DNA of 64,000 nucleotides from Escherichia coli (GTDB lineage: Bacteria; Pseudomonadota; Gammaproteobacteria; Enterobacterales; Enterobacteriaceae). Location: assembly GCF_013315695.1 (NCBI RefSeq), contig NZ_CP054353.1; one strand, given 5' to 3'. The translations under genes and the position numbers were made by a program. Positions 18,418 through 26,159 of this stretch are shown here, one piece after another. The notes below the pieces were generated by a model. It ran no database searches. It was given only the letters and a program-made list of their open reading frames with translations, and was not told the origin of the DNA. Every line of letters begins with the position of its first letter. The first letter of the stretch is position 1.

Positions 18418-19086
18418 ATGTCGAAATTAGGGATCTCATCACTATTTAAAAGCATACTGCTTACTGCAGCTTTGGCTGTTTCATTTACCGCCTCTGCATT
18501 TACCGAAGGCACGGATTACATGGTTCTGGAAAAACCTATTCCGAATGCAGACAAAACGCTGATTAAGGTATTCAGCTACGCCTGCCCGTTCTGTTACAAG
18601 TACGACAAAGCGGTTACCGGTCCGGTATCGGAAAAAGTGAAAGATATCGTTGCTTTCACGCCGTTCCATCTGGAAACCAAAGGTGAATACGGCAAACAAG
18701 CAAGCGAAGTCTTTGCGGTCTTGATCAATAAAGATAAAGCAGCAGGCATTTCCTTATTTGATGCTAACTCTCAGTTTAAGAAAGCCAAGTTTGCCTACTA
18801 CGTGGCTTATCACGACAAAAAAGAACGCTGGTCTGACGGTAAAGATCCGGCTGCTTTTATCAAAACCGGTCTGGATGCCGCAGGTATGAGTCAGGCGGAT
18901 TTTGAAGCGGCACTGAAAGAACCAGCGGTTCAAGAAACACTGGAAAAATGGAAAGCCTCTTATGATGTCGCCAAAATCCAGGGGGTTCCAGCCTATGTCG
19001 TTAATGGTAAGTACTTGATCTACACCAAGAGCATCAAATCCATCGACGCGATGGCAGACCTTATCCGTGAGTTAGCAAGCAAATAA
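18418..19086 (+). CDS. dsbL: periplasmic thiol:disulfide oxidoreductase DsbL (DsbA paralogue)
   Basis: 222 aa, signal peptide, CPFC active-site motif. Confidence 0.8.
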
Positions 19087-19100
19087 CAGGGAAACAGGCT

Positions 19101-19772
19101 ATGGGTATTAAGGGAATGTGGAAAGATCTTCGCACATCACCAGTTGACACACTGGTCAGATGGCAGGAGCAACGCTTGTTGTGGTTGTTAATGGCCGTTG
19201 CGATGGGCGCGTTAATTATCCTGGCGCACTCTTTCTTCCAGATCTATCTCTACATGGCACCCTGTGAGCAATGTGTATACATTCGCTACGCCATGTTTGT
19301 GATGGTTATTGGAGGATTGGTTGCAGCGATCAACCCAAAGAACATCATCCTAAAGCTAATTGGCTGCGTGATGGCATTTTACGGCAGCATTTTGGGACTG
19401 AAGTTTTCGCTCAAACTGAACGATATCCACCATGCAGTACATAATCCGGATCCCGATTCACTGTTTGGCGTACAGGGTTGCTCTACCGATCCAACTTTTC
19501 CCTTTAACCTGCCGCTGGCACAGTGGGCACCAAATTGGTTCAAGCCTACCGGGGATTGTGGCTATGACGCACCAATCGTTCCTGATGGCGTCACACTGAG
19601 CAGCACGCAACAGTGGTTTGTGGAAATGTATCAGCAATCTGAAGGCTGGTATCTGCTACCACCATGGCATTTTATGAATATGGCTCAGGCTTGTATGCTG
19701 GCTTTTGGTATGTGTCTGGTGCTGCTGGTCATTATGAGTGGCGCATGGGCGCTTAAAATCATCAGAGGCTAA
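19101..19772 (+). CDS. dsbI: membrane disulfide oxidoreductase DsbI (DsbB paralogue)
   Basis: 223 aa polytopic protein with CxxC (CEQC) and a second Cys pair. Confidence 0.8.
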
Positions 19773-19778
19773 CTCAGC

Positions 19779-19818
19779 AACACCCGAAGCCAGTCATTCT
19801 GGCTTCGGGTTCTTTTAT
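19779..19818. terminator. terminator hairpin between dsbI and convergent ygiD
   Basis: stem acccgaagccag/ctggcttcgggt followed by tcttttatt. Confidence 0.55.
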
Positions 19819-20633
19819 TAACCTATCTGCACCGACAGCATACTTAAACTGCCCATTTCTATACCATCGACCGGAATGGTAATTGGCTCCTGCCCATCCC
19901 ACGCACCTAACACATACAACAACGGCAGATAGTGCTCTGGCGTTGGGTTCGATAACGCGCCACCTTCATGGTCGAGATAATTCACCAGAGGATGTTGTTC
20001 CACCGGCCCTTGCCACGTCAGATTCGCTTTCACATACTCATTAAACGACGTCGCCCACGGATACGGTGAACTATCACCGTGCCACTTCACTGTACGCAGG
20101 TTATGCACCACGTTGCCACTGGCGACCAACATTATCCCTTCATCACGCAGCGCCGCGAGTTTGCGCCCCATTTCGAAATGCCAGGCGGCAGGTTTGCTAC
20201 TGTCGATACTCAACTGCACCATCGGGATATCGGCGTCAGGATACATCTTAATCAGTACGCCCCACGAGCCGTGGTCGAAGCCCCAGGCTTCTTTATCCAG
20301 CGTCACAGGGACCGGCGCTAACAGCTCAACCAGATGCTGTGCCAGCGCAGGTGAACCCGGAGCAGGATAATGCGTATCGTACAGCGCCTGCGGGAAGCCA
20401 CCAAAGTCATGAATCGTGGGCGGCGTCTCCATCGCGGTCACTCCTGTTCCACGGGTAAACCAGTGAGCCGAAACCACCACTATTGCTTGCGGGCGTGGCA
20501 ATGTCATCCCCAACGTCTGCCAGCTGCGGGTATACAAATTATCTTCCAGCACGTTCATCGGACTACCGTGACCTAAAAACAATGCTGGCATACGTGTTGA
20601 AGACATGATGATATCCTTAACTAAAGGTGTCAT
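19818..20633 (-). CDS. ygiD: LigB-family extradiol dioxygenase (DOPA-dioxygenase-like) YgiD
   Basis: 271 aa ORF; true start may be the internal Met at MSSTRMPALF. Confidence 0.85.
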   Translation of the reverse strand: MTPLVKDIIMSSTRMPALFLGHGSPMNVLEDNLYTRSWQTLGMTLPRPQAIVVVSAHWFTRGTGVTAMETPPTIHDFGGFPQALYDTHYPAPGSPALAQHLVELLAPVPVTLDKEAWGFDHGSWGVLIKMYPDADIPMVQLSIDSSKPAAWHFEMGRKLAALRDEGIMLVASGNVVHNLRTVKWHGDSSPYPWATSFNEYVKANLTWQGPVEQHPLVNYLDHEGGALSNPTPEHYLPLLYVLGAWDGQEPITIPVDGIEMGSLSMLSVQIG

Positions 20634-20748
20634 TTTGATATCCTCACAATACGCTTGTTCGGCGGAGTAAGAACCCGGATAACAATGATGATGATCATCA
20701 GTTATTTTGACGATCTGCCTGAAAGTGAAGATTTATAAGGAGTTGTCG

Positions 20749-21522
20749 ATGTCAGTACCTCTCATTCTGACCATACTGGCGGGGGCAGCCACGTTTATTG
20801 GCGCGTTTCTCGGCGTTCTCGGGCAAAAACCCTCGAACCGCTTACTGGCGTTTTCGCTAGGATTTGCGGCGGGGATCATGTTGCTCATCTCATTAATGGA
20901 AATGCTTCCTGCCGCATTAGCCGCCGAAGGAATGTCACCTGTGTTGGGTTATGGAATGTTTATCTTCGGTCTGCTTGGCTATTTTGGCCTGGACCGCATG
21001 TTGCCACATGCGCATCCGCAGGATTTAATGCAAAAATCGGTGCAGCCGTTGCCAAAATCGATCAAGCGCACAGCCATTCTGCTCACTCTCGGCATCAGTC
21101 TGCATAACTTCCCGGAAGGGATTGCCACCTTTGTCACGGCGAGCAGCAACCTGGAGCTGGGCTTTGGCATCGCACTGGCCGTTGCGTTACACAATATTCC
21201 TGAAGGTCTGGCGGTTGCAGGCCCGGTTTACGCGGCAACGGGGTCTAAACGCACCGCGATTCTTTGGGCGGGGATTTCTGGACTGGCAGAAATTCTTGGT
21301 GGTGTGCTGGCGTGGTTAATCCTCGGTAGCATGATTTCCCCGGTGGTCATGGCGGCAATCATGGCGGCGGTTGCAGGAATTATGGTGGCGCTCTCGGTTG
21401 ATGAATTAATGCCGCTCGCCAAAGAGATTGACCCTAATAATAACCCCAGCTATGGCGTACTATGTGGAATGTCAGTGATGGGATTCAGTTTAGTGCTGCT
21501 ACAAACGGCGGGAATTGGTTAA
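20749..21522 (+). CDS. zupT: ZIP-family zinc transporter ZupT
   Basis: ORF 20707..21522; start placed at [12 protein letters not shown] (257 aa). Confidence 0.9.
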
Positions 21523-21579
21523 AAGCAACATCAGAAGTTGTCCAGCGCATGGACAACTTCTGCCAGCTTCACTAAAGCC

Positions 21580-21750
21580 TTATTCTACCTTTTCGGCTGT
21601 CTCTTCTCTCGTACTGTTTAAGTATTTGTTCCGCGCTTCAAGCAGTGCGTCTCTGTCCTGGCGAAACGCCCGACAATAACGTTTCAAATGCAGGAAATAA
21701 CCCACAACAACAAGAGCAATCAATACAATCCAGTACCAGGCGATAAACAT
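21580..21750 (-). CDS. small single-pass membrane protein, hypothetical (about 56 aa)
   Basis: ORF with TAAGGG RBS 7 nt upstream of ATG; one predicted TM helix then charged tail; no homologue recognised. Confidence 0.4.
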   Translation of the reverse strand: MFIAWYWIVLIALVVVGYFLHLKRYCRAFRQDRDALLEARNKYLNSTREETAEKVE

Positions 21751-21940
21751 CCTTTTACCCTTAATATTTAACAATACTAAACATTTAGCGCATAAATTTC
21801 ACATATCCTTTTTCGGATATATTCATATGGTCGCATAATAACGGAACAATTATATGATTTTGATCATAATGAAAAAGAATGCCTGATATTAATGAAATTT
21901 TCTCATAGAAAGAGAAGCGGAATTAACATCTTGCTTAGCA

Positions 21941-21980
21941 GGGAAAAATAAAAACCGAAGCCTGCTACAACTTCGGTTTC
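21941..21980 (-). terminator. rho-independent terminator of ribB
   Basis: stem aaaccgaag/cttcggttt followed by a T-run on the minus strand. Confidence 0.6.
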
Positions 21981-22011
21981 TTGATTAAGGCAGTAAATTA
22001 AGCAGCGGTTT

Positions 22012-22665
22012 TCAGCTGGCTTTACGCTCATGTGCCTGACGGTATGCCACCAGGTCTTCAATAGTCACGAGCGCCATATTGTGTTTATTGGCAAACTCAA
22101 TGCACTCTGGTGCACGCGCCATCGTGCCATCGTCATTAGTCAGCTCACACAGCACACCAGCCGGTTTAAAGCCTGCCAGCGTCATTAGATCAATAGTTGC
22201 TTCAGTATGACCGCCACGCGTCAGTACTCCACCTGCCTGCGCGCGAAGTGGGAAAACGTGGCCCGGGCGATTCAGATCAGAAGGTTTTGCGTCATCGGCA
22301 ATCGCTGCGCGAACGGTCGTAATACGGTCAGCGGCAGAAACACCGGTAGTCACACCTTCAGCCGCTTCAATGGTCACGGTAAAACCGGTGCCATAGGCGC
22401 TGGTGTTATTTTCTACCATCATTGGCAGATCGAGTTGTTTACGGCGATCTTCAGTAATGCACAGGCAAACAATACCGCTACCGTGGCGAATGGTCAGCGC
22501 CATCTGCTCAACGGTCATGGTTTCTGCCGGGAAGATCATATCGCCTTCGTTTTCACGGTCTTCATCATCAAGCACCATTACACCGCGTCCTTCACGCAGC
22601 GCAGCCAGTGCATTTTCAACACGTTCGAAAGGCGTACCAAAAGAGGAAAGTAGCGTCTGATTCAT
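22012..22665 (-). CDS. ribB: 3,4-dihydroxy-2-butanone-4-phosphate synthase
   Basis: 217 aa ORF, sequence recognised. Confidence 0.95.
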
Positions 22666-22689
22666 GGTAAAAAAACCTCACTAAAATTA

Positions 22690-22930
22690 TGGTTACCAGA
22701 ATCAGGGCAGTCTTAGGAGTGGCGGCATATAGCCAAAATAACGTGAGCGGGTCCATGCCCGACAGAATCGTTACTCTCTCCCATCCGGACTCTAACCGTC
22801 GGCCCCGGAATTACACCGGATCTGCTGTCCTTTGAGTTCGCACCCAAAGCGCTCGCGGGCTTTCAACTGAGTTGATTTACCGCCGGTGGGGAATTTCGCC
22901 CCGCCCTGAGAATAAGCGGATTCACTATAA
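22690..22930 (-). ncRNA. sroG: FMN riboswitch (RFN element) in the ribB leader
   Basis: minus-strand sequence AGGGCGGGGCGAAATTCCCCACCGGCGG ... GGATGGGAGAGAGTAACG matches RFN conserved blocks; bounds approximate. Confidence 0.7.
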
Positions 22931-23038
22931 CGCTAATGATTAGCGGCAGCAACGCATAGCTTCACATAATTCTGGTTTATGACTTACCCTTATCGCACTA
23001 CAATGGCACTCAACACCTATCAGTACAGGGAAACTACA

Positions 23039-23338
23039 ATGATTGACCCGAAAAAAATTGAGCAAATCGCTCGCCAGGTTCACGAATCAATGCCTAAAGG
23101 AATCAGGGAGTTCGGGGAAGATGTGGAGAAAAAAATCCGCCAAACCCTACAAGCGCAGCTGACACGTCTCGATCTGGTAAGCCGCGAAGAATTCGACGTT
23201 CAGACGCAAGTCCTGTTACGGACTCGTGAAAAACTGGCGTTACTGGAACAGCGCATCAGTGAACTGGAAGCGCGCAATAATTCGGTAGCAGATCTTCAAT
23301 CTCCTCCGGCTATCCCGCCTATTGATAAAGCAGAATAA
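23039..23338 (+). CDS. ubiK: ubiquinone biosynthesis accessory factor UbiK (YqiC)
   Basis: ORF 22979..23338; start placed at [13 protein letters not shown]. Confidence 0.8.
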
Positions 23339-23372
23339 AGCAACACAAAAACGGGCCAGACGGCCCGTAATA

Positions 23373-23573
23373 TCAGTGTTCTAATTCAAGTTCTCTGGTT
23401 TGCATCATTTGTTGGCAATACCAGGCATAACGTGCGCAAAACCAGGTTCTATGTTCTTCATCCATGTTACCAGTAACGGCCAGAATATCGACCGGGCGAC
23501 CTTCTGCGTGCATTCTGGCAAAACTACGCGCCAGGAAATCGAAATTATTTAAAGAATTAAGACTATGATCCAT
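23373..23573 (-). CDS. glgS: glycogen synthesis / surface composition regulator GlgS
   Basis: 66 aa from [10 protein letters not shown]. Confidence 0.85.
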
Positions 23574-23841
23574 AAGCACATCCTCCGGTTATCGCATACC
23601 TTTTAAGGCCATATGCTTTTTCTGATTTCAGTATTCACCAATCAGTGTAGTGCCTTTAAACATAACGTGCGTAAATATATTGTCCCCGATCACACTTTTT
23701 AGTGAAAAATAAAAAACCATATTAAAAGACTTTCTCTTCCAGAACTTCTCTAACATGTGTTATTATTAACAAAGATAAATGTAAGCAAGGAAACTATCAT
23801 AAAGTAAATATTGCGTCACTAAATGGACATTGGAGTGACAT

Positions 23842-24471
23842 ATGATTTTATTCGCCGACTATAACACCCCTTATCTTTTCGCTATTTCCTTTGTACTGTT
23901 GATCGGCCTTTTAGAAATTTTTGCGCTTATCTGCGGTCACATGCTCTCCGGTGCACTTGATGCACATCTTGACCATTATGATTCCATAACCACAGGTCAT
24001 ATTAGCCAGGCACTTCATTATCTCAATATCGGAAGATTGCCAGCTCTCGTCGTTCTTTGCTTACTGGCTGGTTTTTTTGGTCTTATTGGCATCCTGTTGC
24101 AGCATACCTGCATCATGGTCTGGCAATCACCACTCTCGAACCTGTTTGTGGTTCCTGTCAGTTTACTGTTTACGATTATTGCGGTGCATTATACCGGTAA
24201 AATAGTTGCGCCCTGGATTCCACGCGATCATAGCTCAGCTATTACAGAAGAAGAATATATTGGTAGCATGGCGTTAATTACCGGTCATCAAGCCACTTCA
24301 GGTAATCCCTACGAAGGAAAACTCACCGATCAATTTGGCCAAATACATTATTTACTACTGGAGCCTGAAGAAGGAAAAATTTTCACTAAAGGAGACAAAG
24401 TGTTAATTATTTGCCGACTTTCTGCAACTCGATATTTGGCGGAAAACAATCCCTGGCCCCAAATATTGTAA
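23842..24471 (+). CDS. yqiJ: NfeD-like inner membrane protein YqiJ
   Basis: 209 aa membrane ORF with C-terminal OB-like domain. Confidence 0.8.
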
Positions 24472-24497
24472 TTTATTAATCAAAAGGAAATTTAATA

Positions 24498-26159
24498 ATG
24501 GATGATATTGTTAATTCTGTGCCCTCCTGGATGTTTACCGCGATTATTGCCGTATGCATTCTGTTTATTATTGGAATTATTTTCGCCAGGCTCTATCGTC
24601 GCGCTTCGGCAGAGCAAGCTTTTGTTCGTACTGGTTTAGGTGGGCAAAAAGTGGTAATGAGCGGTGGCGCAATCGTGATGCCGATCTTTCATGAAATAAT
24701 CCCCATCAATATGAATACTCTGAAGCTGGAAGTCAGCCGCTCAACCATTGATAGCCTGATTACGAAAGATCGTATGCGCGTCGATGTCGTTGTCGCTTTC
24801 TTTGTGCGGGTAAAACCGTCAGTGGAAGGTATTGCCACCGCCGCCCAGACGCTGGGGCAACGCACCCTGTCGCCTGAAGACTTACGTATGTTGGTTGAAG
24901 ATAAATTTGTCGATGCCCTCCGTGCAACAGCTGCACAAATGACCATGCATGAGTTACAGGATACCCGCGAGAACTTCGTGCAGGGCGTACAAAATACCGT
25001 TGCTGAAGATCTGTCGAAAAACGGCCTGGAACTGGAAAGCGTTTCACTTACCAACTTTAACCAGACGTCGAAAGAACATTTCAATCCTAACAACGCCTTT
25101 GACGCCGAAGGTTTAACCAAGCTGACGCAGGAGACGGAGCGCCGTCGTCGCGAACGTAACGAAGTTGAACAGGATGTAGAAGTTGCGGTGCGTGAGAAAA
25201 ACCGTGATGCGCTTTCGCGGAAGCTGGAGATTGAACAGCAAGAAGCGTTTATGACGCTTGAGCAGGAGCAGCAGGTTAAAACCCGTACCGCTGAGCAGAA
25301 TGCGAAAATTGCGGCTTTTGAAGCTGAACGTCGTCGTGAAGCAGAGCAGACGCGAATTCTGGCTGAACGACAGATTCAGGAAACAGAAATCGACCGCGAA
25401 CAGGCCGTCCGCTCAAGAAAAGTTGAAGCTGAACGTGAAGTTCGCATTAAAGAGATCGAACAACAGCAGGTCACCGAAATCGCCAACCAGACGAAATCGA
25501 TCGCTATTGCCGCCAAATCGGAACAGCAGTCACAAGCGGAAGCGCGTGCCAACCTTGCACTTGCAGAAGCGGTAAGCGCCCAGCAAAACGTAGAAACCAC
25601 TCGCCAGACCGCAGAAGCCGATCGTGCTAAACAAGTTGCCCTAATCGCTGCCGCGCAGGATGCAGAAACCAAAGCGGTTGAACTGACCGTGCGGGCGAAA
25701 GCAGAGAAAGAAGCCGCAGAGATGCAGGCGGCGGCGATCGTTGAGTTAGCCGAAGCAACACGCAAAAAAGGCCTGGCGGAAGCAGAAGCGCAACGTGCGC
25801 TGAACGACGCTATCAACGTACTTTCTGACGAGCAAACCAGCCTTAAATTCAAACTGGCCTTGTTGCAGGCGCTACCTGCGGTAATTGAGAAATCCGTGGA
25901 ACCAATGAAGTCCATTGACGGTATCAAGATTATTCAGGTCGATGGATTAAACCGAGGTGGTGCTGCGGGGGATGCGGCATCAGGCAGCGTTAGTGGCGGA
26001 AACCTGGCAGAACAGGCATTGTCTGCCGCCCTTTCTTACCGCACACAGGCACCGCTGATTGACTCCTTGCTCAATGAAATTGGCGTTTCAGGCGGCTCAC
26101 TGGCGGCATTGACTTCCCCCTTAACCTCAACAACTCCCGTCGAAGAAAAAACAGAGTAA
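24498..26159 (+). CDS. yqiK: SPFH/band-7 flotillin-like protein YqiK
   Basis: 553 aa; N-terminal TM, SPFH domain, long A/E/Q/R-rich coiled coil. Confidence 0.85.
   Translation: MDDIVNSVPSWMFTAIIAVCILFIIGIIFARLYRRASAEQAFVRTGLGGQKVVMSGGAIVMPIFHEIIPINMNTLKLEVSRSTIDSLITKDRMRVDVVVAFFVRVKPSVEGIATAAQTLGQRTLSPEDLRMLVEDKFVDALRATAAQMTMHELQDTRENFVQGVQNTVAEDLSKNGLELESVSLTNFNQTSKEHFNPNNAFDAEGLTKLTQETERRRRERNEVEQDVEVAVREKNRDALSRKLEIEQQEAFMTLEQEQQVKTRTAEQNAKIAAFEAERRREAEQTRILAERQIQETEIDREQAVRSRKVEAEREVRIKEIEQQQVTEIANQTKSIAIAAKSEQQSQAEARANLALAEAVSAQQNVETTRQTAEADRAKQVALIAAAQDAETKAVELTVRAKAEKEAAEMQAAAIVELAEATRKKGLAEAEAQRALNDAINVLSDEQTSLKFKLALLQALPAVIEKSVEPMKSIDGIKIIQVDGLNRGGAAGDAASGSVSGGNLAEQALSAALSYRTQAPLIDSLLNEIGVSGGSLAALTSPLTSTTPVEEKTE

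Follow-up and report, generated by a model that had tools for sequence, protein, structure and literature searches.

yqiD, between zupT and ribB of Escherichia coli, encodes a conserved 56-residue protein with one predicted transmembrane helix

In a 64,000-nucleotide stretch of Escherichia coli DNA (hereafter, the window), a short reading frame lies on the minus strand between zupT and ribB. The locus raises the question of whether this frame encodes a protein, which protein that is, and how it might act. An earlier, sequence-only reading took it for a small membrane-protein gene with a good ribosome-binding site and matched it to no named gene. The frame is almost certainly a real coding gene, yqiD. 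We consider it highly probable that yqiD is genuine, is transcribed independently and translated, and encodes a bitopic inner-membrane protein of 56 residues. The features of the locus are collected in Table 1.

Table 1 Coordinates of yqiD, its neighbours and the elements of its gene and control region in the window
Feature	Position	Strand	Basis or remark
zupT, ZIP-family metal importer, convergent neighbour	20749..21522	+	zupT stop 57 nt from yqiD stop
yqiD terminator-like hairpin	21532..21562	-	13-bp perfect stem, 5-nt loop, then ATGTTGCTTTT; between the yqiD and zupT stops
yqiD coding sequence	21580..21750	-	56 codons + TAA; ORF translation, K-12 identity, RefSeq CDS, dN/dS
Variable charged C-terminal tail, codons 38-56	21583..21639	-	little conservation of sequence or length across genera
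Conserved basic membrane-adjoining segment KRYCRAFRQDRDALL, codons 23-37	21640..21684	-	conserved columns; predicted cytoplasmic
N-terminal transmembrane helix (predicted) FIAWYWIVLIALVVVGYFLHL, codons 2-22	21685..21747	-	hydropathy; AlphaFold2 helical, pLDDT 83-87
Conserved yqiD 5' region (promoter + leader)	21751..21892	-	cross-genus identity
Shine-Dalgarno TAAGGG	21758..21763	-	read from sequence; 7 nt upstream of ATG
Candidate hairpin 2	21792-21756	-	covers part of Shine-Dalgarno
Candidate hairpin 1	21822-21801	-	leader
TATAAT	21854-21849	-	within yqiD 5' region
Palindrome TATGATCAAAATCATA, 16 bp	21868-21853	-	conserved in alignments
Promoter-like site	21892-21863	-	prediction; score not above chance
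ribB terminator-like hairpin	21950..21981	-	separates ribB from yqiD
ribB, upstream neighbour	22012..22665	-	same strand as yqiD
FMN riboswitch upstream of ribB	22769-22917	-	RF00050, 120.9 bits; the known sroG/RFN element

A named gene conserved across eight genera

The frame runs from an ATG at 21750-21748 to a TAA stop at 21582-21580, and positions 21583-21750 translate on the minus strand to the 56 residues MFIAWYWIVLIALVVVGYFLHLKRYCRAFRQDRDALLEARNKYLNSTREETAEKVE, in agreement with the minus-strand frame of about 56 codons described from the sequence alone. This product is 100% identical to K-12 YqiD (b4756), both as printed in PMC6001520 and as encoded by the K-12 CDS. The K-12 gene occupies the same position between zupT and ribB on the same strand, and the two do not differ at the protein level. 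Over the 421-nt segment 21530-21950, K-12 is 98.8% identical to the window. A megablast search with positions 21400-22100 matched 5,425 of 5,426 complete E. coli genomes, and all full-length matches among those listed carry the annotation ‘yqiD: protein YqiD’ in the zupT-ribB interval. The corresponding RefSeq CDS, shared by the best-matching strains and K-12 MG1655, is named ‘protein YqiD’ (WP_000469266.1).

The gene had already been described. VanOrsdel et al. 2018 (Proteomics 18:1700064, PMC6001520) give yqiD the K-12 coordinates 3183381-3183551, in the zupT-ribB interval and with the same 56-residue sequence, and include YqiD in their table of named small-protein genes. In the same study, YqiD is among the small proteins identified by a chromosomal SPA tag and immunoblotting, in LB cultures sampled in exponential and stationary phase, and it is listed there as positive in tetracycline-inhibited ribosome profiling too. 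Epitope tagging and ribosome profiling, the two experimental checks proposed in the sequence-only reading, thus already had positive outcomes in the literature. The label ‘unassigned’ is wrong, since the gene has been named and annotated and its translation has been demonstrated since 2018. In a 2026 paper, ‘b4756 yqiD’ stands as the last EcoCyc locus. Our literature search found no published function, localisation or partner of YqiD. Papers on ‘yqiD’ of B. subtilis were set aside, as they concern an unrelated gene, a homologue of ispA. What the present analysis adds is the cross-genus family, the dN/dS estimates, the conserved core, the predicted topology, the 5' region with its palindrome, and a weak link to ZupT.

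In a word-indexed protein search, 108 sequences scored as relatives at E <= 1e-3; those that are named belong to Escherichia, Citrobacter and Salmonella. More distant members, with identities of 30-45% and a common motif, [KR]Rx[C]x A x R[QH][DE]R[DE]A, came from an exhaustive HMMER profile search of 1.84 billion representatives. When one genome per species was scanned for the pattern, 39 loci in eight genera matched. Within Escherichia, these were from E. coli, E. whittamii, E. albertii and two other species; the remainder came from many Citrobacter, Salmonella, Intestinirhabdus, Enterobacter sp. kpr-6, Kosakonia, Phytobacter and Pseudocitrobacter. Of the 39 matched loci, 28 were translated, and the frame was intact in every one, at 51-74 aa.

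The substitution pattern is that of a protein-coding sequence. Identity is 86-90% at codon positions 1 and 2 but falls to 44-60% at the third. Over codons 1-43, dN/dS by the Nei-Gojobori method is 0.03-0.22, with dS between genera at or past saturation. When E. coli is compared with S. enterica, pS reaches 0.71 against a pN of 0.11 (Fisher p = 8e-10); across comparisons, Fisher p ranges from 1e-3 down to this value. As judged from these substitutions, purifying selection on yqiD is strong across the eight enterobacterial genera, and the cross-species conservation rules out a chance 56-codon frame in an AT-rich spacer. The conservation and dN/dS analysis suggested along with the initial description therefore came out in favour of a gene.

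Pfam and NCBIfam scans with YqiD and 20 family members gave only matches under the cut-offs, driven by transmembrane/charged-helix composition. The candidates rejected on these grounds were DUF2621 (19.8 bits against a cut-off of 27.7), NF038143 ‘HYxxLL’ (18.2 bits against 50), and DUF4381 and DUF6526, which scored under their curated cut-offs. A profile search of the PDB returned nothing significant, the best match being GapR/UPF0335 with E = 0.026 over 26 residues. The orthologues in Salmonella and Citrobacter, 63-80% identical to YqiD and likewise located beside zupT, are called ‘DUF4051 domain-containing protein’ by NCBI and UniRef; they differ from E. coli YqiD in their length of 58 aa, a different tail and an additional Cys20. 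The copy of Pfam that we searched holds no DUF4051 model.

Predicted membrane topology and candidate partners

The protein begins with a strongly hydrophobic segment. Its Kyte-Doolittle mean, taken over 19 residues, reaches 2.43 at its highest (residues 2-20), against a usual transmembrane threshold of ~1.6, and the Wimley-White octanol sum for the segment is -15.8 kcal/mol. The hydrophobic helix followed by a charged tail, noted from the sequence alone, is thus recovered as residues 2-22 and what follows them, and the description as a small membrane protein with a good ribosome-binding site is borne out by hydropathy, conservation and the published detection of the protein. At 56 aa with one predicted transmembrane helix, YqiD fits the size (about 60 residues or fewer) and the single helix of the small single-pass inner-membrane regulatory proteins of the AcrZ/MgtS type, a class defined by function and not by homology. 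AlphaFold2, run with a 19-sequence alignment, gives one continuous helix over residues 2-55 (mean pLDDT 72, and the higher values of Table 1 over the transmembrane part), a lone-helix model that carries no fold information. Five K/R residues lie within residues 23-37, and no residues stand ahead of the hydrophobic helix. By the positive-inside rule this charge distribution implies an N-out/C-in orientation, and YqiD is thus likely to be a single-pass membrane protein with its N-terminus in the periplasm and its C-terminus in the cytoplasm.

A28 and R30 are invariant across the wide family, and W5, W7, R24, R33 and A35 are nearly so, whereas beyond residue ~43 the tail varies freely. The conserved core, as read from the aligned family members, comprises the transmembrane helix and the arginine-rich, cysteine-bearing segment KRYCRAFRQDRDAL; we infer that the tail is dispensable or species-specific.

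AcrZ, a protein of 49 aa, is the small partner of the AcrB efflux pump, and MgtS, MntS, PmrR and MgrB are small inner-membrane proteins that regulate transporters, enzymes and sensor kinases. AcrZ resembles YqiD in its small size, in a transmembrane helix that starts at about residue 1-2, in a helical cytoplasmic C-terminus and in having a small transcription unit of its own; it differs in that its partner is demonstrated and co-regulated with it, and the two proteins show no sequence similarity. AcrZ serves as a working model for the possible action of YqiD. MgtS, MntS, PmrR and MgrB are single-pass small proteins, as YqiD is predicted to be, and bind larger membrane proteins; they are not homologous to YqiD, and a defined metal signal induces their genes via known regulators. 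A review of this class is PMC12648545. By analogy with these systems, YqiD would insert into the inner membrane in the N-out/C-in orientation, and its transmembrane helix and the adjoining helix would dock onto a larger inner-membrane protein or complex and modulate it. That YqiD works by binding a larger membrane protein, as AcrZ, MgtS, MgrB and PmrR do, is in our estimate an even bet. Many verified small membrane proteins of E. coli, YqiD among them, lack an assigned function; for YqiD, the eight-genus family, the core with its compensated cysteine, the topology, the control region and the weak ZupT link now offer leads.

The genomic neighbourhood provides one circumstantial candidate for the larger partner. 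In 37 of the 39 species loci, zupT is adjacent to yqiD and convergent with it, tail to tail, with a spacer of 30-70 nt or with overlapping stop codons. On the upstream side the neighbour varies. K-12-type E. coli, C. freundii, Kosakonia and Phytobacter have ribB there; Salmonella, C. rodentium and C. amalonaticus carry an assT-dsbL-dsbI island, and E. albertii has fimbrial genes. The ribB-yqiD gap (21751-22011 in the window) is an insertion hotspot across genera, as observed at four loci. In the window itself, dsbL and dsbI lie outside this gap, beyond ygiD, at ~19101-19772 and upstream.

ZupT comes into consideration as a partner on account of the persistent adjacency and of a Cys/His cluster in the family. 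Almost all Cys and His positions in the family lie within residues 17-34 (21649-21702 in the window), at the predicted boundary between membrane and cytoplasm. Of 26 sequences, 21 carry C26; among the other five, four have a cysteine at position 29 instead, one turn of the helix away, in positional compensation; the motif CHMKRYC occurs in Citrobacter and Salmonella and HxxxxHCxxCxH in Kosakonia. YqiD might accordingly be read as a metal-handling or regulatory accessory of the ZIP transporter ZupT, in which the cluster at the cytoplasmic face of the membrane, possibly in a dimer, would coordinate Zn2+ or a different divalent metal and would either gate ZupT or take metal from it. The islands, which repeatedly break the ribB side and not the yqiD-zupT junction, are in line with this reading, and MgtS and MntS, which act on metal transport, offer a parallel.

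Several observations weigh against it. The adjacency is explained by the ordinary synteny of close relatives together with a very short shared terminator spacer of ~30-70 nt, and it belongs to a general conservation of gene order (ygiB-ygiC-ygiD-zupT ... ribB). Further, yqiD persists where the neighbour is missing: in three Pseudocitrobacter-type loci it stands next to ygiC, with the adjacent zupT and ygiD absent, and in K. oryziphila it lies beside a 63-residue zupT remnant. E. coli YqiD itself contains a single Cys and a single His, and one member of the family is devoid of both. Finally, the zupT promoter is described as constitutive in the passage of PMC7567609 that cites Grass et al. 2005, whereas yqiD has a distinct conserved control region of its own. 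The accessory reading, including its metal-binding mechanism, is therefore unlikely, and we likewise give only a small chance to the broader proposition that the partner is ZupT or that the function is metal-related. Slightly more doubtful is a fuller version, in which YqiD would be a Cys/His-dependent, metal- or redox-responsive accessory subunit of ZupT and a regulator would set its expression by binding the conserved TATGATC-N3-ATCATA palindrome. If true, YqiD would be the first small protein described as regulating a bacterial ZIP transporter.

One metagenome contig of 2 kb joins the two genes. Its positions 1499-2027 hold a frame for a 125-residue fusion of ZupT residues 1-71 to a YqiD-like C-terminal part of 54 residues, followed by the 3' end of zupT on the opposite strand. 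The arrangement reflects either an inversion between two convergent genes or an assembly chimera.

Transcription unit, control region and start codon

Terminator-like hairpins stand on both sides of yqiD. The upstream one corresponds to the ribB terminator region just past which the frame had been placed in the sequence-only reading. In the downstream hairpin, an alignment of the divergent E. coli allele (described below) and E. albertii shows the stem kept through changes in both arms, and the T-rich run follows on the yqiD strand only, so that the element looks like a one-directional intrinsic terminator for yqiD. On the other strand, zupT is left with no obvious U-tract terminator.

The sequence upstream of yqiD is conserved as well. 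When E. coli is compared with Salmonella, Citrobacter or Intestinirhabdus, identity is 69-77% over the upstream 130 nt and 74-85% over the proximal 60 nt; the levels for comparison are those of the third codon positions given above and 39-58% for the zupT-ygiD spacer. By this comparison the 5' region is better conserved than synonymous sites. Together with the terminators on both sides, it is evidence that yqiD forms its own transcription unit. Natural variants upstream of yqiD alter its expression, with consistent results from GWAS, a promoter model and a GFP reporter (bioRxiv 10.1101/2025.06.10.658842).

Within the conserved region, the palindrome has the consensus TATGATC(A/G)AAATCAT(A); other conserved blocks are a TATA(T/G)G-like element at ~21829-21824 and a block that runs into the Shine-Dalgarno sequence. 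A reading of the palindrome (core TGAT-N4-ATCA) as an FNR box was considered but not adopted. The sequence ATGATCAAAATCAT agrees with the FNR site TTGAT-N4-ATCAA at 8 of 10 positions and is conserved in five genera, but such matches occur at chance frequency: 42 two-mismatch matches were found in the window against 32.6 expected, so the match is no better than chance there. A literature search on FNR or anaerobic regulation at the yqiD locus found nothing relevant.

The leader may also fold. Tested with a structure derived from one of the aligned sequences, the two candidate local hairpins have 82-85% of alignment cells paired, four pairs with compensatory changes and z = -1.75, a modest covariation that is suggestive only. 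A weak long-range stem over the start codon proposed by RNAalifold (-3.3 kcal/mol, no covariation) was set aside; the local hairpins fit better.

Such a leader recalls those of type I toxins (Ibs, Ldr, TisB, ShoB, Hok), which are likewise small proteins with a single hydrophobic helix. YqiD could accordingly be a membrane-perturbing peptide of this kind, its translation kept low by the long conserved leader, with an unusually conserved stretch of ~90-120 nt and a candidate hairpin over part of the Shine-Dalgarno sequence; an Ibs type I toxin gene is, moreover, annotated ~10 kb away, in the hldE-yqiK interval of an E. coli strain with the divergent allele. Unlike typical type I toxins, however, YqiD is detectable from its native locus in rich medium and by ribosome profiling, and its single-copy gene keeps strict synteny in all eight genera. 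The best-conserved part of the protein is the polar, predicted cytoplasmic helix and not the transmembrane segment alone. In positions 19000-25000 of the window, Rfam found no RNA family, and hence no antisense RNA family, except the FMN riboswitch, unannotated antisense RNAs being beyond its reach. If type I toxins are taken as proteins with little or no translation in normal growth and repression by an antisense RNA or an overlapping small RNA, YqiD falls outside the class, and we regard a toxin-like role as very improbable.

The Shine-Dalgarno sequence TAAGGG, seen also in the sequence-only reading at about 7 nt from the ATG, lies at exactly that distance. Most of the aligned sequences from Escherichia, Citrobacter, Salmonella and Intestinirhabdus keep its AAGGG; E. 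albertii, the divergent E. coli allele and one Salmonella each differ from it by a single base. A longer product of 64 residues could begin at a TTG at 21774, which is in frame 24 nt upstream of the ATG with no stop codon between them. This TTG has no Shine-Dalgarno sequence, however, and in Salmonella and E. whittamii an extra A between AAGGG and the ATG breaks the frame; conservation of the protein starts exactly at MFIAWYW, and the ATG is the start used by RefSeq and by VanOrsdel et al. 2018 (PMC6001520). Because one-base indels break the TTG frame and the MFIAWYW N-terminus is conserved, we assign the start to the ATG at 21750 and give the longer form hardly any credence. The remaining alternative, that the frame is incidental to a conserved non-coding RNA or a ribB 3' regulatory region, draws on the conservation of the surrounding non-coding sequence but can be set aside with near certainty in view of the codon-periodic substitutions with dN/dS far under 1, the detection of tagged YqiD (PMC6001520), the lack of an Rfam match, and the ribB-yqiD islands of Salmonella, several Citrobacter, E. 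albertii and some E. coli, which leave yqiD intact.

A divergent allele in E. coli

About 993 of 5,424 complete E. coli genomes (~18%) carry a deeply divergent yqiD allele, sampled here at three loci. It shares ~80% nucleotide identity with the window allele over the reading frame and 66% identity at the protein level, with a dS of 1.58, and is about as distant from it as the Salmonella gene is. RefSeq names its product ‘hypothetical protein’ (WP_001296421.1). The divergent allele is accompanied by a four-gene chaperone-usher fimbrial operon between yqiD and ribB, and in one strain also by IS1. The zupT gene beside it can be the ordinary allele, which places a recombination breakpoint in the 57-nt spacer.
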